Part shown: positions 221 to 62,342 of the stretch, piece by piece
How the letters are laid out: each line of letters starts with the position of its first letter
How positions within the stretch are numbered: the stretch's first letter is position 1
DNA from: a virus
Lineage: Duplodnaviria; Heunggongvirae; Uroviricota; Caudoviricetes
Length of the DNA stretch: 64,000 nucleotides
Virus record (IMG/VR): IMGVR_UViG_2721755710_000007
Location: 1-64,000 of that record
Direction: 5' to 3' (one strand)
Program-made: the position numbers and the translations under genes
The notes under the pieces: model-generated
Told to the model about the DNA's origin: nothing
What the model saw: only the letters and a program-made list of their open reading frames with translations
Database searches by the model: none

Positions 221-1108
221 ATGATCACTTCAGCACAAAACCAATCAATCGAAAATGTATCTATCCCTGACGTCCTGAATGCCGGTATCCCGGCCATTAT
301 CCAGAACATCCGGGCCGCGCAACGCCGCGTTAGTTGTGATGACCTCACAGCGCGTTTTTTTGATAATGCGGTTCAGTCAGCGGAGATGCTTCACGCACAG
401 CTTATTGATGTTTATAACGCAGAAGCTGATAGCCATAACTCCCTGGTAGATGCAGCTGAAAATATGCAGTTGGATCTCGGTCTGAAGGGTAAAGAAATTG
501 AAGAGCTTCAGCTGGAAATTGAACATTTGAAACGCCAGCAACAGGACGCGATCGACGATGCGACGCATGACGCCAACCAGCGTGCTGATAATGCCGAACG
601 TATAAGCATTGAGCTGGAAACAAAACTCAATGAAATGACCGCGATGGTTGAACTGCGGAACTCACAGATTTCAACGCTAAAATCTCAATATAAAGAGATC
701 ATGAAACTTGATCCTTTTAACCTTGAGAAACGCTATAACAAAGCTAAAAGCGAGCGACAGGAACTGCGTAAGCAGGTCGCCGACCTTAACCAACAGCTCA
801 AAAAAACTATTAAAGATGCAAGCGAAGCGCGCGTGGCATTTGCTAATAAAAAAGCAGAGGTTACCGCGCTGGTTAATGAGAATGCCAAATTTGCGACGCT
901 CAAGAAGGAAATGTATGGCATTACTGAGCGCCGTTTCCCTGCAAGCAAACTTCATCCGACGTTAGGGCAAATCTCCTTCTTCCCGCGCCTCCTGGCTTAT
1001 GGGATCTCATCGCCTAAAGAGTTCAATAACGAGCGTCCTTATATCGTTTCTAAGCTGGACTTTGCTTATCAGTTCTGCTGCGACATGGGCTATGCCATTG
1101 ATATCTGA
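221..1108 (+). CDS. hypothetical coiled-coil protein (295 aa)
   Basis: Long ORF with heptad-like charged repeats; no recognisable catalytic motif. Confidence 0.4.
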   Translation: MITSAQNQSIENVSIPDVLNAGIPAIIQNIRAAQRRVSCDDLTARFFDNAVQSAEMLHAQLIDVYNAEADSHNSLVDAAENMQLDLGLKGKEIEELQLEIEHLKRQQQDAIDDATHDANQRADNAERISIELETKLNEMTAMVELRNSQISTLKSQYKEIMKLDPFNLEKRYNKAKSERQELRKQVADLNQQLKKTIKDASEARVAFANKKAEVTALVNENAKFATLKKEMYGITERRFPASKLHPTLGQISFFPRLLAYGISSPKEFNNERPYIVSKLDFAYQFCCDMGYAIDI

Positions 1109-1120
1109 ATCAACGAATGG

Positions 1121-1483
1121 TTGATGCCAAACTTCCAGCCGCTGGCCATTTTCCGCGAGTTCCAGCCGGAAGGTTGGGTAGAGTTCTTCCATGAATTGAT
1201 CTGTAAAGAGATGGAAAGCCGCCGCCCGGAACTGGTCCGCCGTGTCGAGTGGGCGCAAGAGGTTATGTTGGCAGATGCAGAGCTGCCGTTCGAACCGGAA
1301 TTTATTGATGATCTGGCAGCTAAAGGGCTGCATACCCTGTTTGATGTGGTTACCCGCCGTCATGAGCAGTTGGTTGTCGAATTGGGTTTAGAGGAAACAG
1401 CGGCAAGAAGACTTCTCGATGTTTGCTATGCACGTAGCGATGCATGGGAAAAAGAGAACGGCGGCACTATTTACGTTCGCTGA
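1121..1483 (+). CDS. hypothetical protein (120 aa)
   Basis: ORF 13 bp after the previous gene, followed by a terminator hairpin. Confidence 0.4.
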   Translation: MMPNFQPLAIFREFQPEGWVEFFHELICKEMESRRPELVRRVEWAQEVMLADAELPFEPEFIDDLAAKGLHTLFDVVTRRHEQLVVELGLEETAARRLLDVCYARSDAWEKENGGTIYVR

Positions 1484-2078: not shown

Positions 2079-2326
2079 TGATTTTTAAAACGGAGAAAGT
2101 GAAAATAAAAACATGCCGCAAGGCGCGGCATGTATCCAATCAATCACAGGAGCTGAAAATATGAACACGGCATTCAAAATCATTATGGCCGCGATCTATT
2201 TCTGGCTGTTCTCTATCACTTTTGGCGGCATCGTCGCTCATGGGTAAGGGGAGTATATTAGCCATTTGGGACCCCACGGTCTCTTGCGGGTTTAATTAAG
2301 AACCCGCAAGAAAAATACGAATTGGG

Positions 2327-5300
2327 CTATATTTTTCCGCCTACGCCTTTAAACTTCTCAATAAACGAGACGATTTTCTGGAAAACTGCCTGTTTTTTCG
2401 TTTTATATTGCGGATTTAACGGACTAAGTTTTGGTAATGTTTCGTTTAATTCTGTGCCATTTTCGGTGGCATATTCGCGTTTTAAAGACGTGCGAATATA
2501 GCGTTTTGCTGCATCTTCATTGAGATTTTCTTCTTTTATCAATGCTTCTGCTTCACGTTGCTGTTCGCGTTGAGCAAACGTAAAGAATGCGTCAATGATG
2601 CTGGCTTTGTCCGGTAAATCATCCAGGTTCGTTTGCTGAATAAAATCGACCACCAGGCCCTCTTTAGCACGGTTCCCTAGGCTTGAACGAATTAAGCGTT
2701 TGACCTCTTCGATCATTTCGCCCTTGCCTTTATTTTGTCTGTTGTGTTCGAAAATCAGTCCAAGGATATAATCCAGGTTTATTTCCTGAGACTTCAGCAA
2801 ATCGACCTCAAAAACTACGTCATCCCAGTCAGTGGTTGATTTCTCTTTTTTCTCAGCTTCTTTCTCACGGCGCTGCCAGTCGCGAATATCGTTATAGGCA
2901 GAACGATAATCCTGAATCTTGCGATCAGCAGGGAGACGAATTGTTTGCAATTTAGCGAACTTTTCATCATCCACATAATGCTCTGCTTTGAATTTTTCTA
3001 CCGCAACAGGATCGCTAAGATCGATTTGTTGCAGGGCTTTTAGCGTGGCAAATTCATCATAGTTTTGCAGGATGTTCTCGGCACGCAGGTATTCGCCAAA
3101 CAGTTTAACGAAGTCTTTCTTCTCTTTTTCACTTTCAATACTGGTAGGGTCAGGGAACCGTTGTTCCAGTTCTGAAACTACTGTCATAAAGCCGCGTTTA
3201 GCTTCACCAGTAGCAGCATCAGTAAAGCCTTCCATATACTCTGTATAACTCTTTTCTAACACCACATTTTTGGTGTTTTTGTCACCAAACAGCGTTATGG
3301 CATCAATAGTTGAGCGTTCCAGATCCCGGAAAGTGACGATATTACCGAAGGTTTTAGTAGCGTCATAAATGCGGTTGGTGCGGGAAAATGCCTGCATCAG
3401 GCCGTGAAAACGCAAGTTTTTATCGACGAATAGCGTGTTCAATGTTGGAGCATCGAAGCCGGTTAAAAACATCCCCACGACGATTAACAAGTCAACATCC
3501 TGATTTTTAACCCGCTGAGCCAGGTCCCGATAGTAGTTCTGAAAACCCTTGCTATCAGTACTGAAATTCATTTGAAAATGGTCGTTATATTCACGAATTG
3601 CAGCATCCAGAAACTCTTTAGCACTGCTGTCCATTGCGCTGGTATCAAAAGTTTCATCGGAAATTTCACCAATGGCATTTTGTTCTTCATTAGCGGCAAA
3701 GGAGAAGATTGTCGCAACACGCAGCGGTTTATAGGTAGCCGATTTATTAGCGGCTTCTTCTTGTAACCGTTTAAACGTCGCATAATAGGCTTTCGCGGCA
3801 TCCACGCTGCTCACTGCCAGCATGGCATTAAAGCCTTTGGAGCCTGGGAAGGTACGGTGGGTTTTCTGGCGGAAGTTGTTCAGGATATATTGCGTGATTT
3901 CCTGAATACGCATGGGATGAAGAAACGCCTGCTGATTTTCAGCCGCACTCAGTTTTTTCTCGTCAGTTTCTGTCTCTAAAGACTTAAACTGTGGCCGCAC
4001 ATCGTTGTAGTCCACCTTGAATTTGAGCACTTTTTCGTCACGAATCGCATCGGTAATTACATACGAATGCAATTCACGACCAAATACGCTGGCGGTTGTT
4101 TCTGAGCCTAAGGCGTTTTCCGGGAAAATAGGGGTGCCGGTAAAACCAAACTGATAATAGCGTTTGAATTTCTTCTTCAGGTTTTTCTGCGCTTCTCCAA
4201 ACTGGCTGCGGTGGCATTCATCAAATATAAACACCACTTGCTGATTATATACAGGCAGGTCGCTTTCTGCTTTCATCAGATTATTGAGTTTCTGAATAGT
4301 AGTGACGATAATTTTGTTATCGTCCTTATCCAGATTTCGTTTAAGGCCTGCGGTATTTTCCGAGCCGTTGACGCTGTCTGGCGAAAAACGCTGATATTCC
4401 TTCATGGTCTGGTAATCGAGGTCTTTCCTGTCGACCACAAAGAAGACTTTATCAATAAAGTCCAGCTCTGTTGCCAGACGCGCGGCTTTAAAGCTGGTGA
4501 GGGTTTTACCAGAACCGGTAGTGTGCCAGATATACCCACCGCTTTCCGGTTTTGACCAGTTCTTCGCTGTAAAGGAACTCTTAATTTTCCACAGAATGCG
4601 CTCGGTGGCGGCAATCTGGTACGGTCGCATCACCAGTAGCGTCTGACTACTGTCAAAAACGCTGTAGTTCACCAGAACATTCAGCAGAGTATGTTTCTGG
4701 AAAAAGGTAGCGGTAAAGTCTTTGAGGTCTTTAATCAGCGTGTTGTCTGATTTCGCCCAATTCATGGTGAAGTCAAAACTGTTTTTATCGCGCTTTGTCG
4801 TGTTGGCAAAATAACGGGTATCGGTGCCGTTAGAAATGACAAACAGTTGCAGATACTTAAACAGGGAATTTTCGCTGTTAAAACTCTCTTTACTGTAACG
4901 ATGTATCTGGTTGAAAGCCTCACGAATCGCCACCCCGCGTTTTTTTAGTTCGATTTGCACCAGCGGTAAACCATTAACCAGGATCGTGACGTCATAACGA
5001 TTAGCATGAGAACCCGTCTGTTCAAACTGCTGGATAATCTGCACCTTATTGCGCATGAGATTCTTTTTATCTATCAAATAGATGTTCTCAAGTCGCTCGT
5101 CATCAAAAATAAAGTCGCAAATATAGTCGATATGGATTTTACGGGTCTTATCCAGAATGCCATCGCTCGGGTTGTCCAGATACTGCTCCGTGAAACGCCG
5201 CCACTCGCTGTCATTAAACACCACACCATTGAGGCTCTGAAGCTGTTGTCGAACATTGGCCAGCATCGCCGACTGAGATTTTACGGATATAAATTCATAG

Positions 5301-5443
5301 CCCTGATTTCGCAGGTCCTGAATCAGTTCACGTTCCAGGTCCGATTCGCTCTGGTAGCTGTCGCCTGTTGGCTCAGCTTTGATGTACTTATCAAGAACGA
5401 TAAAGTTATTGGATTCAGCAATGGTGTGTGTCTGATGAGTCAT
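2327..5443 (-). CDS. hsdR: Type I restriction enzyme R subunit (1038 aa)
   Basis: Helicase motifs (TTGSGKT, DECH box); size matches Type IC HsdR; downstream of hsdM-hsdS. Confidence 0.85.
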
Positions 5444-5564
5444 AGCGCATCCTTTGTGCCGTCTGGCAAGGGCCGGAAGGGGGGTAATGGTGACTTCCGG
5501 CGCGTAAAAAATAGTCTATATACTGACCGGGTGTTAAGGTGGTCCGATCGGTAGCAATGATCAA

Positions 5565-6164
5565 TTAATTACTGACAGTTTCAGGTTTCGGGAAACTGAA
5601 CAGTAAATCACGGTAGTATTCGTATTGTTTCTGGCGCAACTCGATTTCACGCGGAAGACCTTCGGTGATGGAGTTAGTCAGGGTGTCGAAATTATCCAGA
5701 ATCCGAACGATTTCAGACTGGATGGCAAGGGATTTTTCCGGATTATCCGGGCAGGGGATTGGGATTTTTTTTTGAGAATAATTACTAATCCATTGGCGTT
5801 TATGGTCTCCCTCTGCGAATTCACTTGGTAATGTATTGAGCCAATAGTAAACATATTTCAGTAAGGTTTTATTATCATCACATGATGTAACCATTTTCAT
5901 AGCCGATGATTTTGCCTTAAAGTCAAAATCCACCCATTTATTAGCGGTGGTGAAATCATCAAAAATTATTACAGGTGCCTTTGATGCCTGATAAATACCA
6001 TGAGTCTCATTTGTGTATCCAAGAATAAATGTTTTTCCGGCAGTAAGAACCGGGATGGTATATGTGTCGTGATAATCTTTTGCTTTTACCAAATACTTTG
6101 TTGGCTGTTCATATTTGGTTATTTCCCCCAATGGCAACCACTCAACCTCAACCCCATCCAGCAA
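5565..6164 (-). CDS. hsdS: Type I specificity subunit, half-size with one target-recognition domain (199 aa)
   Basis: 24 bp downstream of hsdM; C-terminal conserved HsdS helix (...ILDNFDTLTNSITEGLPREIELRQKQYEYYRDLLF); only one TRD fits. Confidence 0.7.
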   Translation of the reverse strand: MLDGVEVEWLPLGEITKYEQPTKYLVKAKDYHDTYTIPVLTAGKTFILGYTNETHGIYQASKAPVIIFDDFTTANKWVDFDFKAKSSAMKMVTSCDDNKTLLKYVYYWLNTLPSEFAEGDHKRQWISNYSQKKIPIPCPDNPEKSLAIQSEIVRILDNFDTLTNSITEGLPREIELRQKQYEYYRDLLFSFPKPETVSN

Positions 6165-6188
6165 TTTTTCCAGATAAACTTAACTCGC

Positions 6189-7751
6189 TCATTTTTGCAC
6201 CTCGCAGCCTTCAATTTCAGCCACAATCGCATCAATATCTTTACGCAACTGGTCGATTTTGCTGACCGTGGTTTTCAGCTCAGCATTCAGCTCAGCAATA
6301 TCGATAATTTCGCGGTTATCTTTCGCTTCCACATAGCTGCTCACCGACAGGTTATAGTCATTAGCAACAACGGTCTCAAACGCGACAGATTTCGCCAGAT
6401 GAGCAACATCTTCCTTGCTGGCAAATACCTGCATAATCTGTTCGATATGGGTATCGGTCAGGATATTGTTGTTAGTCTCTTTTTTGAACAGTTCGCTGGC
6501 GTCAATAAACTGAACGTTGGTATCCGTTTTATGTTTGGACAGAACCAGAATGTTTACTGCAATGGTGGTGCCAAAGAACAGGTTCGGTGCCAGTGAAATT
6601 ACGGTTTCGACATAGTTATTGTCAATCAGATACTGACGGATTTTCTGCTCCGCGCCGCCACGGTAAAAAATACCCGGGAAGCAAACAATCGCAGCACGAC
6701 CTTTGGCAGAAAGATAGTTCAGCGCATGTAGTACAAAGGCGAAGTCAGCTTTTGATTTGGGGGCCAGAACGCCAGCCGGGGCAAAACGCTCATCGTTAAT
6801 CAGTGTCGGGTCATCGCTGCCAATCCATTTCACCGAATACGGCGGGTTAGAAACGATGGCATCAAACGGTTTTTCATCTCTGAAGTGCGGCTCAGTCAGT
6901 GTATTACCCAGCCTGATATCAAACTTGTCGTAGTTGATGTTGTGCAAAAACATGTTCATACGCGCCAGATTATAGGTCGTATGGTTGATTTCCTGACCGA
7001 AAAAGCCTTCTTCGATGATATGGTTATCAAACTGCTTTTTAGCCTGCAACAACAGTGAGCCGGAACCCGCTGCCGGGTCGTAGATTTTGTTAACGTTGGT
7101 CTGCCCGTGCATAGCCAGTTGTGCAATCAGCCTGGAGACGTGCTGCGGTGTAAAGAACTCACCGCCTGACTTACCAGCATTCGCCGCATAGTTAGAAATC
7201 AGGAACTCATAGGCATCGCCGAACAGGTCAATCTGATGTTCGTTAAAGTCGCCAAGCTTTAAGCCTTCAACCCCTTTCAGGACCGCAGCCAGGCGGGCAT
7301 TTTTATCCTTAACGGTGTTACCCAGGCGGTTACTGGTGGTATCGAAATCAGCAAACAGACCTTTGATGTCTGCTTCTGAAGGATAACCGTAAGCAGAACT
7401 TTCGATAGCAACGAAGATGCTGTTTAAATCTGCATTCAGTCTGTCATTGGTATTTGCTTTCGCCGCTACGTTGCAGAAAAGCTGACTGGGGTAGATGAAG
7501 TAGCCTTTAGTTTTGATGGCATCGTCTTTAATATCATCAGTAATTACGCTGTCATCCAGTTTCGCATAACAGATACTGTCATCACCGGCTTCAATATAGC
7601 TGGAAAAATTTTCGCTGATAAAACGGTAGAAAAGTGCGCCCAGAACGTATTGCTTAAAATCCCATCCATCGACCGAACCCCTGACATCGTTAGCAATTTG
7701 CCAGATTTGACGATGAAGCTCTGCACGTTGTTGAATACTTGTCATTTTCAT
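6189..7751 (-). CDS. hsdM: Type I N6-adenine DNA methyltransferase M subunit (520 aa)
   Basis: NPPY catalytic motif ([10 protein letters not shown]), AdoMet-binding region, conserved HsdM N-terminus. Confidence 0.85.
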
Positions 7752-7927
7752 CCACTTATTTCAGGCTTATGTAATTGGATGTGATTCTACAGCAACTTGG
7801 ATGCTTTAGCAGTTCGGATATTAGGCTACGAATGACCTGCCTAGAGGTTTGTTAAGCCGCAAAGTGCTGGTGCTTTATGTCTGTGAAGTTTATAATTGCG
7901 TACACATAACGAGTACACGAGGTATTT

Positions 7928-8149
7928 ATGCAATCCATTAACTTCCGTACCGCGCGCGGCAACCTTTCTGAAGTGCTCAACAATGTTGAAGCCGGGGAAG
8001 AGGTTGAAATCACCCGCAGAGGCCGTGAGCCAGCAGTAATTGTCAGCAAGGCTACTTTCGAAGCCTACAAAAAAGCGGCGCTGGATGCTGAATTTGCATC
8101 CCTGTTTGACACCCTGGACTCCACCAACAAGGAACTGGTTAACCGATAA
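7928..8149 (+). CDS. phd: Phd antitoxin (73 aa)
   Basis: Sequence matches P1 Phd as I recall it ([41 protein letters not shown]...); overlaps doc start. Confidence 0.9.
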
Positions 8150-8529
8150 TGAGGCATATATCACCGGAAGAACTTATTGCGCTTCATGATGCGAATATAA
8201 GCCGCTACGGCGGCCTGCCGGGAATGTCAGATCCGGGTAGGGCAGAGGCCATTATCGGGAGAGTTCAGGCCAGAGTTGCCTACGAAGAGATCACCGACCT
8301 TTTCGAAGTCTCCGCCACCTACCTGGTGGCTACAGCGAGAGGGCATATATTCAATGATGCCAATAAGCGTACCGCGCTAAACAGCGCGCTGCTATTTCTA
8401 CGCCGTAACGGGGTGCAGGTATTTGATTCACCTGAACTGGCAGACCTTACCGTAGGGGCTGCGACCGGAGAGATATCTGTATCTTCTGTCGCCGACACGT
8501 TACGTAGATTGTATGGTTCTGCGGAGTAG
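8149..8529 (+). CDS. doc: Doc toxin (126 aa)
   Basis: Fic/Doc family sequence immediately after phd with ATGA start/stop overlap. Confidence 0.9.
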
Positions 8530-8713
8530 ATTAATGGCACGTAAATACAACAAGTTGTCCCGTGAAGCGTTAAAGATGCTTCTTGATGGCGTGAGCCGCC
8601 GCAAGGTAAAGCAATACCTGGTTGGTAAGCAAATTGGAGTCAGGACCGCTATTGCTGTGTTATGCCGTCAGGAAATGGTTGTGCTTAAACAGAGAATGCC
8701 GGGCAGCAGATAA
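8513..8713 (+). CDS. small hypothetical protein (position of P1 pdcB)
   Basis: Short basic ORF directly after doc. Confidence 0.3.
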
Positions 8714-8740
8714 AGCCCAATCAGTGATTAAAGGTGTGAT

Positions 8741-9784
8741 GTGAAAGCCATAATTACTCCCTTTGTACAGAAAGAGCTTGGCCTCGCCACGTTCAAAGTG
8801 GATCAGGAGGTCAGAAAGCTGGTGGAGGCTGGCCGTAAATTTATTATGGAGCCGGTGCCGCGTGAGTTAATCGAGCACATGGAAGACGGCCTCGTTGTTA
8901 CCGAGCAAACCATGGCAACAAATGAGGCGTTGCAGCCGTTTTTTAACAGCGATGAACTGTTTCGCCGTATTGGTGGAATTGACGCGCTGGTGGCGTGGTT
9001 GCGTAAGAAAGAGGGTCAATGCCAGGCCGCAGATCGTAGTTGGTGTGACAACCATATTGTCCACGCTGAACGAGACAATAGCGCGGTGTTGTTGTGCTGG
9101 CATCACGATAACCATTATCGGATGCGTGGTTTTAATGAGCTGAAAGAAACGCTGCACAATAATCGCGTTAACTGGATACTGGATGTCGCCCGTCAGGAAA
9201 TGGGCCTTTCAAATAGCCATGATTTAAGTATTCAGGAGCTGTGCTGGTGGGCTTTCATGCGCAACATGATGCACCTGATGCCGGAAGAAGTCTGCCGCAT
9301 ATCAATAAATAAGATGAAGGCTACTCCGCAGGATAGCGGACCTCTGAAAGAGGCGGATATTCGCCCGTATGACGATCGCGCTACAGCATATGTTCAGATG
9401 ATGGAAGAACGCGCCGCGCCGATGCGTGCAAAAGTATGCCCTGTGGATGTTGACTCCGACCCTGGCATGGCGCATTTCAAAATACCAAAACTGCAATCGC
9501 TAAAATTACCTGAGTACATGGACTTTGTTGCTTCCCGTCCATGCTGTGGGTGTGGAGCTGCGGGAGCTGGCGCTCACATTACGCCTCATATCGTTCGTCA
9601 TAGTCGATTATGCGCGCATGACATTTACGCAATTCCTCTGTGCCAGTCATGCCAGCGTGATATTGAGCGTGACCGCGATAATTGGGAGAAGACGCACGGT
9701 AGGTTGGCGATGCATCAACGATTGTTCTTTGATTACGCGCTTGGAGTCGGCGCTATCACAAGTCACTCGTCGAACGTTAGGTAA
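8741..9784 (+). CDS. hypothetical protein, 347 aa (position of P1 pdcA)
   Basis: Long ORF between doc and the late-activator gene; Cys/His-rich C-terminal region. Confidence 0.5.
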
Positions 9785-13644: not shown

Positions 13645-14008
13645 AATTATGCCTCACTGTATTGACAACACAGAGCCTGAAGCTCTGACCTACTGTTTCA
13701 CCCATGATCCATGCTGGGGTAATCTAACAACATTGCGCTGTGTGTAAGATGAGCAATGCGGTGATGCTGCCAACTTACTGATTTAGTGTATGATGGTGTT
13801 TTTGAGGTGCTCCAGTGGCTTCTGTTTCTATCAGCTGTCCCTCCTGTTCAGCTACTGACGGGGTGGTGCGTAACGGCAAAAGCACCGCCGGACATCAGCG
13901 CTATCTCTGCTCTCACTGCCGTAAAACATGGCAACTGCAGTTCACTTACACCGCTTCTCAACCCGGTACGCACCAGAAAATCATTGATATGGCCATGAAT
14001 GGCGTTGG

Positions 14009-15461
<1,453 letters not shown>

Positions 15462-16179: not shown

Positions 16180-17211
16180 ATGTCCAATTTACTGACCGTA
16201 CACCAAAATTTTCCTGCATTGCCGGTCGATGCAACGAGTGATGAGGTTCGCAAGAACCTGATGGACATGTTCAGGGATCGCCAGGCGTTTTCTGAGCATA
16301 CCTGGAAAATGCTTCTGTCCGTTTGCCGGTCATGGGCGGCATGGTGCAAGTTGAATAACCGGAAATGGTTTCCCGCAGAACCTGAAGATGTTCGCGATTA
16401 TCTTCTATATCTTCAGGCGCGCGGTCTGGCAGTAAAAACTATCCAGCAACATTTGGGCCAGCTAAACATGCTTCATCGTCGGTCCGGGCTGCCGCGACCA
16501 AGTGACAGCAATGCTGTTTCACTGGTTATGCGGCGGATCCGAAAAGAAAACGTTGATGCCGGTGAACGTGCAAAACAGGCACTAGCGTTCGAACGCACTG
16601 ATTTCGACCAGGTTCGTTCACTCATGGAAAATAGCGATCGCTGCCAGGATATACGTAATCTGGCATTTCTGGGGATTGCTTATAACACCCTGTTACGTAT
16701 AGCCGAAATTGCCAGGATCAGGGTTAAAGATATCTCACGTACTGACGGTGGGAGAATGTTAATCCATATTGGCAGAACGAAAACGCTGGTTAGCACCGCA
16801 GGTGTAGAGAAGGCACTTAGCCTAGGGGTAACTAAACTGGTCGAGCGATGGATTTCTGTCTCTGGTGTGGCTGATGATCCGAATAACTACTTGTTTTGCC
16901 GGGTCAGAAAAAATGGTGTTGCCTCGCCATCACCCACCAGCCAGCTATCAACTCGCGCCCTGGAAGGGATTTTTGAAGCAACTCACCGATTGATTTACGG
17001 GGCTAAGGATGACTCTGGCCAGAGGTACCTGGCCTGGTCTGGACACAGTGCCCGTGTCGGAGCCGCGCGAGATATGGCCCGTGCCGGAGTTTCAATACCG
17101 GAGATCATGCAAGCTGGTGGCTGGACCAACGTAAATATTGTCATGAACTATATCCGTAACCTGGATAGTGAAACAGGGGCAATGGTGCGCCTGCTGGAAG
17201 ATGGCGATTAG
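16180..17211 (+). CDS. cre: Cre tyrosine recombinase (343 aa)
   Basis: Sequence recognised as Cre (MSNLLTVHQN...LEDGD); about 420 bp downstream of loxP. Confidence 0.97.
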   Translation: MSNLLTVHQNFPALPVDATSDEVRKNLMDMFRDRQAFSEHTWKMLLSVCRSWAAWCKLNNRKWFPAEPEDVRDYLLYLQARGLAVKTIQQHLGQLNMLHRRSGLPRPSDSNAVSLVMRRIRKENVDAGERAKQALAFERTDFDQVRSLMENSDRCQDIRNLAFLGIAYNTLLRIAEIARIRVKDISRTDGGRMLIHIGRTKTLVSTAGVEKALSLGVTKLVERWISVSGVADDPNNYLFCRVRKNGVASPSPTSQLSTRALEGIFEATHRLIYGAKDDSGQRYLAWSGHSARVGAARDMARAGVSIPEIMQAGGWTNVNIVMNYIRNLDSETGAMVRLLEDGD

Positions 17212-34726: not shown

Positions 34727-35494
34727 GGTAATGACTCCAACTTATTGATAGTGTTTTATGTTCAGATAATGCCCGATGACTTTGTCATGCAGCTCCACCG
34801 ATTTTGAGAACGACAGCGACTTCCGTCCCAGCCGTGCCAGGTGCTGCCTCAGATTCAGGTTATGCCGCTCAATTCGCTGCGTATATCGCTTGCTGATTAC
34901 GTGCAGCTTTCCCTTCAGGCGGGATTCATACAGCGGCCAGCCATCCGTCATCCATATCACCACGTCAAAGGGTGACAGCAGGCTCATAAGACGCCCCAGC
35001 GTCGCCATAGTGCGTTCACCGAATACGTGCGCAACAACCGTCTTCCGGAGACTGTCATACGCGTAAAACAGCCAGCGCTGGCGCGATTTAGCCCCGACAT
35101 AGCCCCACTGTTCGTCCATTTCCGCGCAGACGATGACGTCACTGCCCGGCTGTATGCGCGAGGTTACCGACTGCGGCCTGAGTTTTTTAAGTGACGTAAA
35201 ATCGTGTTGAGGCCAACGCCCATAATGCGGGCAGTTGCCCGGCATCCAACGCCATTCATGGCCATATCAATGATTTTCTGGTGCGTACCGGGTTGAGAAG
35301 CGGTGTAAGTGAACTGCAGTTGCCATGTTTTACGGCAGTGAGAGCAGAGATAGCGCTGATGTCCGGCGGTGCTTTTGCCGTTACGCACCACCCCGTCAGT
35401 AGCTGAACAGGAGGGACAGCTGATAGAAACAGAAGCCACTGGAGCACCTCAAAAACACCATCATACACTAAATCAGTAAGTTGGCAGCATCACC
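34727..35494 (-). mobile_element. IS1, copy 3
   Basis: Identical to copy 2, same orientation, with insA/insB ORFs (35164-35439, 34742-35245). Confidence 0.95.
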
Positions 35495-58160: not shown

Positions 58161-59058
58161 GCACTGGAAAAACATTACTATTTATAAACTTTCTCGTGAG
58201 GCGGATCTGACCGACTTAGAAGATAAAAAGAAAATGATCCTTTTCACGCCATGCGGTAGTCAGGATATGGCCAAGTTCGGTTTTGTATCTCCATTTGGTG
58301 ATAATTCCGAAGTTATCGCTATGCATGGAAATGGTTTTATCCTTGTTGAAGCAAAGCGCGAAACAAAAATTCTTCCCCCGCCGGTTATCCAGCGAGCTAT
58401 TCAAGAAAAAATTGAAAAACTTGAGCAAGAACAAGCGTGTAAACTGAAGAAAACAGAGAAGGACTCCCTGAAAGACGAAGTTCTGCATTCTCTTCTGCCA
58501 CGGGCTTTTTCAAAGTTTTCTGTTATCCAGGCGATCTACGACGGTTCAACTAAACGTATCTATATCAATGCCAGCGCGCGGCAGGCAGAGGATATGCTCG
58601 CGCTTATGCGTAAGTCTCTGGGTTCTCTTCCTGTTGTTCCCCTGAGTGTTGAAAATCCCATTGAATTAACGCTGACCGACTGGGTACGTGATGGTAGTGC
58701 TCCACAGGGATTTCAAATGGGGGATGCGGCAGAACTTAAGGCAGTGCTTGAGGATGGCGGTATTGCCCGAGTGAAAAAGCAGGATTTGGGAAGCGATGAA
58801 ATTTCCACACACCTGGAAGCTGGCAAGCTCGTCACTAAGTTGGCACTCGACTGGCAGAACCGCATTAAATTTACACTGGACCATAACTTCAGCCTTACCA
58901 GCGTCAAATTTGCGGATGAATTGCTTGAGCAGAACTCTGATATTGATAGTGAAGATGTAGCGCAGCGACTGGACGCAGATTTCTTCCTGTTGACCAGTGA
59001 AATTTCGTGCCTGGTTGATGCTCTGGTAAATGCCCTTGGTGGAGAGGCTAAGCAGTGA
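58153..59058 (+). CDS. hrdC: RdgC-family recombination-associated protein (302 aa)
   Basis: Strong resemblance to E. coli RdgC ([11 protein letters not shown]...[23 protein letters not shown]...SLPVVPL); start at the Met at 58153. Confidence 0.85.
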
Positions 59059-62000
59059 AAGAGCTGTGCTATGGATCTGTTTGCAGTGGAATTGAAGCCG
59101 CGAGTATTGCCTGGGAACCGTTGGGTATGCGTCCGGTTTGGTTTGCTGAAATCGAGCCTTTTCCATCGGCCGTTCTTGCGCTCCGCTGGCCCCATGTCGC
59201 CAACCTTGGCGACATGACAAAACTTGCCAAAAAAGTCTAGGCTGGGGAAATCGAATCCCCTGACGTGCTCGTCGGGGGAACACCATGTTTTACCGCGGGG
59301 CATATGGTTCTTTGTAAAAATGGTTATAAACCAATAGAAGATATTTGCCCTGGCGATTACGTAGTCAGTCATCTCGGGCGGTTACAACAAGTAAAAAGAG
59401 TTGGTTCAAAAATAGCTAATACGGGGTTACTTAATGCCGTTGGGCAGCCTTTAGGTATAAGAACAACCAATGACCATCCCTTCCTGGCGGTTCGGTGGAA
59501 AGCCCAAAACACCCGGAAAAATGGCACATATTTTAAGAGAGAGTTGTTGTCTGAACCGGAATGGCGAGCAGCATGTGATATGCCGGGATATCAATGGTGC
59601 GCTCTAACTAATTTCAATATTGCATCTCCAGATATTTGTTCTCGGTTCTTGTCTGAAGAACAGGCTATGTATCTTGCGGGCGCTTATGTTGGCGATGGAT
59701 ATATTAGGAGATGGAGAGGTAAATCTAAGAAGGCGGTTGTTTTTGGCATAAATTGCCAGAAATTGAGAAAGTTTCATTGCCGCATACCAGAAAACATATT
59801 TTCCGTGGCAAGCGAAATCCGAGGGAGCATCAAAGTAACCTTGAATGATACGTGTTATGCCAATTGGCTTAATGAACATTTTGGCGAGTTAAGCCATGCT
59901 AAGCGTATCCCTGCATGGGTGATGTCGCATCCATTGCGTCATGTGTTTTTACAAGGCTATCTTGATACTGATGGGACACCAAGTGGTAAAGCGGGATTTA
60001 GAATTAATAGTGTTAGTCCTGCGCTTGCTTGGGGCGTTGCGGGGTTGTCACAGACTTGTGGTTATGTTTCTTCGGTCAGCTTTATTGAAGTTGAGCCCAA
60101 AAAAGTGATCGAGGATCGCGTGGTAAATCAACGGAATTATTATCAGGTAACAATCTGCCCGCAGAAATTGTCACGTAAATCAAGATTGGCTCATGGAATG
60201 CTTTTACGAACAGTCAAAGAGTTTAAATCGGTAGGCCTAGATACTGTATACAACATAGAAGTCGAAGGTGATCATTCCTATATCCTCAATGGTGCGGTGG
60301 TCCATAACTGTCAGGCATTCAGTATCGCGGGATTACGTGGTGGGCTTGATGATGAGCGTGGCGCGCTAACTTTAAAGTATGTGGAGCTTGCAAATGCAAT
60401 TGACGACAAACGGGCTGAGTCATTTCTCAAACCAGCCGTTATCGTCTGGGAAAATGTCCCAGGAGTCTTGTCATCGGCAGATAACGCCTTCGGATGTTTC
60501 CTTGCCGGATTGGCTGGAGAAGATGCGCCATTTGAACCAGGTGATCGACCTGAATCAGGAAAAAGTAACGCGTTCTGGCGGTGGGATGGCAAAACCGGTT
60601 GCCATGCTCCAAAGTGGCCGCAGTGTGGTTGTATTTATGGGCCGCAGCGAAAGGTGGCCTGGAGAATCCTTGATGCCCAATACTTCGGAGTGGCACAACG
60701 ACGCCGACGCGTGTTTGTTGTCGCAAGTGCTCGAACAGACCTCGATCCCGCAACGGTACTTTTTGAGTTCGAAGGCGTGCGCCGGAATATTGCGCCGAGC
60801 CGAAAAAAGAAGGAAATCGCTTCCGCCATTACTGCAAATGGCGCTGCAATCAGTGGCGAAAGCCTAAATCCATGCCTACACGCTGGCATGTCCCCCGGTA
60901 TGAAATCGACGAAAGCCGTAAACGGTTTCAGGATGGCGGCATTTGGGGAATATATTGACGATGAAACCGCATCGACAGTAAAGGCAAGAGACTTTAAAGA
61001 TGCCACTGACCTTGCTGTTTTTAGCAGCACAGGAGCAGGTTTTTGGTCAGAAGGGCATGGTACATTGCGGGCTCGTGAGCAAGAAAGCCATGAGCATCTT
61101 GTTACATTGGCTTTTCCTGAGCGTATGAGCGGTACACAACATGCTGCAACTAAGAATACTTCACCATCTCTAATGGCTAAAAATCCAACAGCTGTTTGCT
61201 ATGAAGTAAGAAACGCAGAAGTAGCTGTCCGCCGTCTTACCCCTGTCGAATGTGAAAGGCTGCAAGGTTTTCCTGATGGGCATACGTTGATCCCGACGGA
61301 AAAGCGTAAAAAAGTTAATTCAGATGAACTGGCATATCTTCGCAATCACTATCCAGATTTAAGCGAAGAAGAGGCCGCGATGCTTGCAGCTGACGGACCG
61401 CGTTACAAAGCGATCGGCAATAGTATGGCAATACCAGTAATGCGCTGGATTGGCGATCGGATTACTAAGGCCGTATGTCGGCAGAAAGAAGGAAGTGAAA
61501 CAAAAGAGCGAAAAGTTAAACCAGCGGCAGAATTCGAACGGTCCATATTCAAATGGGCTGGTGGAAAATTTGGTGTTCTGGAACAAATCTTTCGCTATTT
61601 GCCAGAAGGGAAGCGCCTGATTGAACCTTTCGTCGGTGGTGGAGCTGTCTTCATGAATGCCGGATACCAGGAAAATCTGCTAAATGATGTGAATGCTGAC
61701 CTGATTAACTTTTACAAGACTCTGCAACGCGAGGCGCATTCACTTATCACTCTGGCTCATCGTTTCTTCTTGGACTACAACACCCAGGAGGGATTCCTGG
61801 CAGTACGGAATGCGTTTAACAAACAAGTCTATGATGATTTACATCGCGCAGCGGCGTTTTTGTTCCTGAACCGACATTGTTTTAACGGATTGACGCGTTA
61901 CAACCAGGCCGGTGAGTTCAATGTCGGTTATGGGAAGTATAAAACTCCGTATTTCCCATTACAGGAGATGGAAGCCTTCCTCGGTGCGGAAGGTCGTTCT

Positions 62001-62342
62001 GAGTTTGTATGTGGTGATTTTGCTGCGGTGATTGAAGCTGCCGGAGAAGGAGATGTCATTTTTTGCGATCCGCCATATGAACCGCTTCCAAATACAGAGG
62101 GATTCACGAACTATTCCGGTCATGACTTTAAGTTTGAAGAGCAACAACGCCTGGTGTCTCTGTTGACGGATGCTCATCGCCGAGGTGCAAAGGTTCTCAT
62201 TACTAACAGTGGCGCGCCAAACATCAGAGAGCTTTATCATGACAATGGTTTCAGAGTGGAACCTCTTTTTGCCAGACGTTCTGTGTCTTGTAAGGGGGAC
62301 ACTCGAGGTGTTGCTCATGACGTTTTAGGTATATTGCTCTAA
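59055..62342 (+). CDS. dmt: two-domain DNA methyltransferase Dmt (C5-cytosine N-terminal, Dam-like C-terminal), interrupted by an intein and an in-frame TAG
   Basis: C5 motif I ([10 protein letters not shown]), split PCQ motif (GGTPC / QAFSIAG), [15 protein letters not shown]; Dam motifs (KWAGGK, DPPY); GTG start overlapping the upstream stop. Confidence 0.75.
59286..60308 (+). other. intein with LAGLIDADG homing-endonuclease domain (341 aa) in dmt
   Basis: Starts [13 protein letters not shown] (block A), TNDHPF (block B), [11 protein letters not shown] and [11 protein letters not shown] (LAGLIDADG), ends ...[10 protein letters not shown], followed by extein Cys of PCQ. Confidence 0.75.

Follow-up and report, generated by a model that had tools for sequence, protein, structure and literature searches.

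An open reading frame of only 199 amino acids (aa) occupies the hsdS position of a Type I restriction-modification locus in a viral DNA record, IMGVR_UViG_2721755710_000007 of IMG/VR. The stretch analysed, positions 1 to 64,000 of that record, is referred to as the window. The question raised by this locus is whether a specificity subunit (HsdS) of half the usual size is a natural form that reads a palindromic target, or what is left of a damaged gene. The identities, repeat structure, exact deletion relationship, frameshift and distribution reported below were read directly from sequences. They point to an EcoR124I-type operon whose half-size hsdS is derived by deletion, would read a palindrome when intact, and is impaired in the window by one extra T. 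This reading as a whole is regarded as probable.

The hsd locus and its one-domain HsdS

The locus is formed by three consecutive minus-strand open reading frames in the order M-S-R (open reading frame list). The features are:

6189..7751, minus strand: hsdM, 520 aa, N6-adenine methyltransferase subunit; stop TGA at 6191-6189
5565..6164, minus strand: putative remnant hsdS open reading frame, 199 aa; start TTG at 6164, stop TAA at 5567-5565
5444..5564, minus strand: hsdS-hsdR spacer, 121 bp, of the same length in full-length alleles
2327..5443, minus strand: hsdR, 1038 aa, nuclease and SF2 translocase subunit

Coordinates, sizes, gene order and the 121-bp gap between hsdS and hsdR are all correct in the initial annotation of this DNA, as checked against the open reading frame list and the sequence. 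HsdM displays the Pfam domains N6_Mtase (6.5e-121) and HsdM_N, and HsdR displays HSDR_N, SWI2_SNF2, T1R_D3(-like) and EcoR124_C. HsdM aligns with the EcoR124II M chain 7bst_D over residues 1-520 (1159.2 bits; self-score 1167.2) and HsdR with the solved EcoR124I HsdR chain 2w00_A over residues 1-1038 (2290.5 bits; self-score 2312.2), i.e. end to end with 99% of their own self-scores. Because the bit scores are this close to the self-scores, both proteins are considered almost identical to those of the family IC prototype. The locus thus appears to be an EcoR124I-type (family IC) operon, carried as cargo adjoining phd-doc on a P1-like phage-plasmid. The Type IC assignment had already been proposed from the sizes of HsdM and HsdR.

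In family IC, hsdR has a separate promoter and the hsdS ATG overlaps the hsdM stop codon (ATGA). The gene order and the ATGA overlap of the family are both present in the window, and the overlapping ATG runs into a frameshift. A weak sigma-70-like site, which is a consensus match only, is found in the hsdS-hsdR spacer (TTAACA-18-TATTTT, 5537-5508).

The hsdS open reading frame has a single Methylase_S domain (Pfam). It aligns in two blocks with the 404-aa HsdS of EcoR124 (7bst_A), in agreement with its earlier description as one domain plus the C-terminal helix. Residues 1-157 are 100% identical to EcoR124 residues 10-166, which represent the end of the N-terminal conserved stretch and the entire N-terminal, GAA-reading domain. 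Compared with known target-recognition domains, the single domain is therefore that of EcoR124. The remainder corresponds to the C-terminal helix of EcoR124 HsdS (residues ~358-404), with full identity from FDTLTNS onward to the end. All residues of the frame are covered by the solved EcoR124 HsdS. The IC-type conserved termini, LLDGVEVEW... and ...FDTLTNSITEGLPREIELRQKQYEYYRDLLFSFPKPETVSN, are also identical to those of EcoR124 HsdS. Neither the TAEL-repeat central conserved region nor a second target-recognition domain is present (alignment and Pfam); the family IC arrangement of two recognition domains around a TAEL-repeat region is not found here. What is found is the arrangement of a half-HsdS, one complete recognition domain followed by one coiled-coil helix, the helix being the C-terminal one (D2) and not the central one (D1). 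The two parts are:

5697..6177, minus strand: 481-nt unit encoding YLEKLLDGVEVEW...SEIVRIL, the N-terminal conserved stretch and the GAA target-recognition domain
5568..5696, minus strand: C-terminal conserved helix region (D2), DNFDTLTNSITEGLPREIELRQKQYEYYRDLLFSFPKPETVSN

A second hsdS fragment that completes the subunit, which according to the initial annotation would refute the idea, is not present in the 64-kb window by tblastn with a 411-aa HsdS (described below) or by blastn with the hsdS region. The exact 199-aa sequence has an nr entry (WP_249531162.1), and a look-up of contigs encoding this protein gave none.

Origin of the half-size gene

An intact half-size hsdS, encoding 208 aa, is present in four complete P1-like plasmids: pYLPI7b, p321-pO111, H15 plasmid A and p02B17002_B. 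The carriers originate from a pig in Cuba and from humans in Germany and Canada, with one origin unstated. In all four the hsdS locus adjoins phd-doc, and hsdM and hsdR are intact.

Twelve PLSDB plasmids (e.g. NZ_CP016549.1) have at this site a gene for a 411-aa HsdS with two copies of the GAA domain. The protein starts with the N-terminal stretch, followed by the GAA domain, a central region containing three TAEL repeats, a linker, the YLEKLLDGVEVEW stretch, the same GAA domain again and the C-terminal helix. The 411-aa gene contains a perfect 481-nt direct repeat at gene nt positions 15-495 and 624-1104 with a period of 609 nt (mapped in locus L002). In silico removal of one 609-nt unit yields the 627-nt half gene of pYLPI7b and p02B17002_B with 0 differences.

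The same relationship holds in a second lineage of the locus, which is diverged by about 3% and has other alleles of HsdM, HsdR and Doc. Its two-unit form is found in p1585m1_C and its one-unit form in H15 plasmid A, and in silico deletion of a unit from the p1585m1_C gene gives the H15 plasmid A half gene, again with 0 differences. The two copies of the repeat differ at four positions in this lineage, which places the crossover between nt 46 and 464. The natural half genes of the two lineages differ at 17 nt and each matches its own parent; thus at least two independent deletion events have taken place.

A three-unit hsdS, encoding 614 aa with three identical GAA units, was found in CP099227.1, a plasmid from a UK farm survey (locus L006, 1487-3331). 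This plasmid is exactly 609 bp longer than its two-unit siblings CP099233 and CP099239. As one-, two- and three-unit forms exist, the copy number of the unit changes in both directions, which is expected for recombination between long direct repeats.

The proposed process is as follows. In a parental 411-aa allele with two identical GAA domains, recombination between the copies would remove one unit in frame. This would leave the N-terminal stretch, one GAA domain and the C-terminal helix, i.e. the 208-aa protein. In the window, a later gain of one T after codon 5 would have cut hsdS off from its native ATG and also from the overlap that links its translation to that of hsdM.

In other natural family IC HsdS alleles (P0006, P0013 and P0003) the EcoR124 GAA domain, with its own YLEKLLDGVEVEW leader, is found in second position behind an unrelated first domain. 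Alleles of this type suggest how the two-GAA allele may first have been assembled. They also show that the recognition domain has moved between HsdS positions in nature.

The extra T and the state of the window copy

The 5′ end of hsdS in the window displays two features:

6148..6192, minus strand: native hsdS start, ATG at 6192-6190 overlapping the hsdM stop; here only 14 codons, ending at TGA 6150-6148
6176..6178, minus strand: TTT run, one T more than in relatives (TT); +1 frameshift after hsdS codon 5

The window reads ATG AGC GAG TTA AGT TTA TCT; pYLPI7b has one T fewer and reads AGT TAT CTG at the end of this segment. The same ATG opens the 208-aa gene in pYLPI7b and the three other plasmids, where the product begins MSELSYLEKLLDGVEVEW. 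The 199-aa frame lies downstream of an in-frame TAA (6182-6180) and starts at an internal TTG (6164) that lies 25 nt beyond the hsdM stop codon and has only GGA ~7 nt upstream as a ribosome-binding site. The 199-aa open reading frame thus appears to be a remnant and not the native gene, a 208-aa half-size HsdS without its first 9 residues. An intact, expressible half-size hsdS is found in the four related plasmids but not in the window. The earlier proposal of a natural half-size HsdS of 199 aa therefore holds for the size of the open reading frame, but not for that of the native gene, which is 208 aa in relatives; the 199-aa figure reflects the internal TTG start.

Methylation and restriction both need HsdS. 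With the TTT run, the native ATG would yield a 14-residue peptide, which leaves TTG 6164 and more internal TTG codons as the only possible starts for HsdS. A product starting at TTG 6164 would miss at least the first nine residues, including YLEK. This stretch is probably part of the structural unit, since it is kept even where the domain sits second, in the 411-aa allele. The window copy most likely makes little or no HsdS, and because both activities need this subunit, modification and restriction would be lost or much reduced. Such a loss is presumably harmless to the host.

These predictions depend on whether the extra T is real. Window positions 2400-9300 (6.9 kb) are identical to plasmid p02B17002_B save for the extra T. 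Over the ~42 kb that align with this closest relative there are ~16 substitutions and a single internal indel, the extra T. The coding sequence of the recognition domain contains nine consecutive A residues (5765-5773; SQKKIP), which are in frame in the window and in all relatives examined. The assembly does not appear to be prone to indels, since it has this one internal indel in ~42 kb and a correct 9-A run. The 9-A run is a likelier slippage site than the TT run that changed. A search for the TTT pattern among plasmids, E. coli complete genomes, phages, viral contigs, metagenome contigs and species-representative genomes found it in no other record.

A neighboring gene bears on the same point:

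221-1483, plus strand: 420-aa gene of unassigned role, with an internal TGA at 1106-1108 that is Arg in relatives

The internal stop is common to the window and p02B17002_B, where it is annotated as ‘internal stop’. As the same lesion is annotated there, the TGA is considered inherited and not an error. A second in-frame stop, in the dmt gene (see below), is shared with plasmid p22Q34-2, and the two shared stops indicate that this lineage accumulates real lesions. The extra T is quite probably real as well.

The alternative is that the T is a sequencing or assembly error and that the element encodes an intact 208-aa HsdS and a fully active palindrome-reading enzyme. A single-base difference from p02B17002_B over 6.9 kb, a TTT run seen in no other record searched, and intact hsdM and hsdR genes would all be accounted for in this way. 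However, the error would have to be the only internal indel in ~42 kb and to have spared the 9-A run, a likelier site; a two-base run is an unusual place for it, and knock-out of hsdS is a classic harmless route to losing a Type I system. An error is thus considered unlikely, though it should be kept in mind.

The 481-nt repeat has its 5′ edge exactly at the extra T, and in the two-unit gene (L002 5993-6002) copy 2 is likewise preceded by a T. The window junction (6176-6179) can be read as the copy-1 flank joined to the copy-2 edge, which is probably a coincidence. An imprecise 608-nt deletion of a two-unit gene was considered as the source of the window allele, but is less parsimonious, as the window otherwise matches an intact one-unit plasmid. 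Programmed frameshifting or phase variation at the T run was rejected: a run of 2-3 nt is too short, and no other record varies.

Predicted activity and target of the intact allele

Half-size HsdS subunits have been characterized in several systems. Residues 1-215 of EcoR124I HsdS (the GAA domain and central helix) form an active methyltransferase with HsdM, and this complex with HsdR forms an active ATP-dependent nuclease; the target is the symmetric GAAN7TTC (PMC2877798, PMC3320862). Small-angle neutron scattering (SANS) models of the EcoR124I-NT enzyme display a wild-type-like architecture (PMC2877798, PMC3320862). The earlier in vivo mutant HsdS(delta50) has the same specificity, GAAN7TTC; EcoDXXI truncations behave likewise, the N-terminal deletion having to dimerise via its C-terminal helix (GAAYN5RTTC); and co-expressed N- and C-terminal halves of EcoDXXI HsdS restore wild-type specificity (PMC3874165). 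In the natural family IC system NgoAV of the gonococcus, HsdS200 specifies GCAN8TGC with an M2S2 stoichiometry, and an early T insertion leads to the inactive HsdS62. Single-domain S subunits are also functional in Lactococcus and in an engineered staphylococcal enzyme.

By analogy, the intact 208-aa allele is most likely a palindrome-reading enzyme with the target GAAN7TTC or GAAN8TTC. Two half subunits should pair via their helices, which would give a methyltransferase (M2S2) or a nuclease (R2M2S2) with an interrupted palindrome as its target. This pairing is expected because engineered EcoR124I halves, EcoDXXI truncations and the natural NgoAV HsdS200 all behave in this manner. The initial annotation suggested a natural palindrome-reading enzyme. 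This proposal is well supported for the allele family, by the intact 208-aa copies and by the engineered equivalent acting on GAAN7TTC, but is doubtful for the window copy with its 5′ frameshift.

The two candidate targets follow from different considerations. EcoDXXI-deltaN, which is D2-based, has a spacing of 7 nt between methylated adenines (PMC3874165), and this predicts GAAN7TTC for the 208-aa allele. By residue count D2 has the length of a D1 containing three TAEL repeats, and helix length alone predicts GAAN8TTC. For the two-unit allele the predicted target is GAAN8TTC, so that deletion of a unit would either be silent or shift the spacer by one base. Work on a staphylococcal system (CC398) indicates that the spacer is not simply predictable from helix length. 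The window has 21 GAA-Nk-TTC sites with k = 7 and 17 with k = 8, both within shuffle expectation; these counts are uninformative on activity, since an active system would methylate its own element.

The one-domain allele could instead have decayed neutrally from the two-domain gene and be dead in all carriers. Such a deletion happens readily and has recurred, the window copy has acquired another lesion on top of it, and the D2-D2 pairing of the 208-aa protein is a presumption. On the other hand, all five one-unit loci of the two lineages retain intact hsdM and hsdR genes, exact 208-aa proteins occur on ~165 public contigs, and engineered halves with the same GAA domain are active. Death of the allele in every carrier is therefore judged improbable.

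The half subunit might also pair with another HsdS of the host, e.g. one of a chromosomal family IC system, to read an asymmetric target, or the plasmid HsdM and HsdR might serve a chromosomal HsdS. Family IC sequences are frequent on E. coli chromosomes (~1000 places), and the co-expressed EcoDXXI halves described in PMC3874165 do regenerate wild-type specificity. Yet there is no other hsdS piece in the window, the complete one-unit plasmids show one place per record, and homodimers form readily in every half-HsdS case tested. Mixed pairing would moreover supplement, and not replace, a palindromic activity. Only a small probability is assigned to this possibility, and homodimeric reading of a palindrome by the intact allele remains preferred.

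Distribution of the half-size gene

The 208-aa protein is found in three variants, on 74, 60 and 31 public contigs. The RefSeq entries are WP_016231377.1, WP_199613773.1 and WP_001568001.1, under the generic name ‘restriction endonuclease subunit S’. The gene for WP_016231377.1 is identical to that of the window apart from the extra T. The same protein cluster includes many ‘partial’ HsdS products at contig ends, which indicates that the usual outcome of assembly at this repeat is a broken contig.

It is very improbable that the half-size gene is an assembly artefact in which the 609-nt unit of a true 411-aa, two-domain gene has collapsed: although the perfect 481-nt repeat exceeds short-read length and the ‘partial’ products show that assemblers struggle with it, the one-unit form is present in two diverged lineages and in five independent sequences, including four complete plasmids, that come from various hosts and countries, other assemblies (sibling plasmids among them) do resolve two- and three-unit forms, and an unresolved repeat normally breaks contigs and does not give a clean in-frame gene.

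Several points weigh against the interpretation as a deletion-derived half-size allele that reads a palindrome when intact and is impaired in the window. In draft assemblies, some of the 208-aa genes may be two-unit genes that have collapsed. The natural half uses D2, unlike the D1-based halves of EcoR124I and NgoAV, and EcoDXXI-deltaN is the only precedent for D2. We infer the dimerisation, target and activity state by analogy. For the window copy, reinitiation at TTG 6164 could still give some HsdS lacking the 9 residues, and the chance of a single-base assembly error at the T run, small as it is, counts here as well.

Other features of the window

Two further features flank the operon:

7928..8529, plus strand: phd-doc addiction module, divergent from hsdM; phd 7928-8149, doc 8149-8529; Pfam PhdYeFM_antitox and Fic/DOC
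2111..2133, minus strand: terminator-like hairpin with a T-run, downstream of hsdR; pattern match only

The phd and doc genes adjoin hsdM, as noted initially, and these neighbors recur in all related plasmids. The hairpin differs from that of pYLPI7b by a 2-nt (GG) indel in the loop and stem, which is the sole other indel in a 10-kb comparison. The absence of a Type III res-mod system, also noted initially, is borne out in that the window has no open reading frame of at least 600 aa with Type III Res or Mod domains.

The window represents a P1-like phage-plasmid and matches P1, P7, SJ46, RCS47 and many E. coli IncY plasmids. The P1 backbone genes phd-doc, pacA/B, cre and c1 are found around the locus, with a Cre-like integrase at 16180-17211. 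At 59055-62342 (plus strand) a double DNA methyltransferase that resembles P1 Dmt and has C5 and Dam domains is split by an intein (Hint and LAGLIDADG) at the GGTP|C catalytic motif. The dmt N-extein has an in-frame stop (59238-59240), common to plasmid p22Q34-2 but not present in the HB-Coli0 plasmid. For a query that spans the extein-intein junction, coverage reaches at least 80% in 127 PLSDB plasmids. IS1 is present in three copies (13760-14527, 31169-31936 and 34727-35494). A cargo block at 26190-30640, where P1 carries other genes, contains an autotransporter (1165 aa) beside an IS3-family transposase.

Discussion

A half HsdS that forms a homodimer and reads a palindromic target is a kind already known in family IC; NgoAV and lactococcal examples exist. 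The searchable literature yielded no publication that describes the natural P1-like plasmid allele, how it originated by deletion between duplicated domains, or the one-, two- and three-unit series. A literature search for a natural GAAN6/7/8TTC motif and for P1-like plasmids with hsdS gave only engineered-enzyme papers and reviews.

The closest known counterparts are the laboratory halves of EcoR124I, HsdS(delta50) and EcoR124I-NT, which share with the window the identical recognition domain (EcoR124 residues 10-166) and near-identical HsdM and HsdR partners. Both the laboratory halves and the natural allele have one domain and one coiled-coil helix, and a homodimer is expected of both. In the laboratory halves the last element is the central helix D1, which contains the TAEL repeats, whereas the natural allele joins the domain to D2 and retains no remnant of the second domain. 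The laboratory forms were produced by truncation, the natural allele by repeat recombination, and the window copy in addition is without its native start. EcoDXXI-deltaN resembles the natural allele in dimerising via the C-terminal helix, and is the only half subunit reported to do so, but it has another recognition domain and is engineered.

NgoAV HsdS200, like the window family, is a natural one-domain family IC HsdS, and its target is palindromic. The early T insertion of the inactive HsdS62 parallels the lesion in the window. NgoAV, however, switches via a poly-G tract that truncates the protein after D1 and leaves the dead second half downstream, whereas here an in-frame 609-nt deletion has removed the unit cleanly. 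NgoAV is a chromosomal core gene and the window system is phage-plasmid cargo. The truncated S subunits of lactococcal plasmids and the engineered CC398 ‘M 1/2 S’ are single-domain subunits that methylate palindromes and confer phage resistance, but they belong to other Type I families and have other domains. The 208-aa RefSeq proteins of P1-like plasmids come from the same locus and gene as that of the window, and differ from it in keeping an intact ATG that overlaps the hsdM stop.

The 609-nt unit might act as a copy-number switch in which one, two or three GAA units change the stoichiometry (M2S2 vs M2S1) and possibly the spacer (GAAN7TTC vs GAAN8TTC). This is put forward as an unlikely idea. 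If true, it would let one element alternate between two specificities, or escape the restriction of its relatives, without acquiring a new domain.

With respect to annotation, the 199-aa ‘HsdS’ of the window element should be read as a frameshifted gene, and carriers of this copy may be restriction- and modification-negative. For the family, the half-subunit EcoR124I enzyme of the laboratory, made in 1993 and studied structurally in 2010-2012, has a natural counterpart that recurs on P1-like E. coli phage-plasmids. A simple mechanism for its origin is provided by a deletion between recognition domains that had been duplicated, and the natural one-, two- and three-unit series may be used to test how helix pairing sets the target spacer of Type I enzymes.

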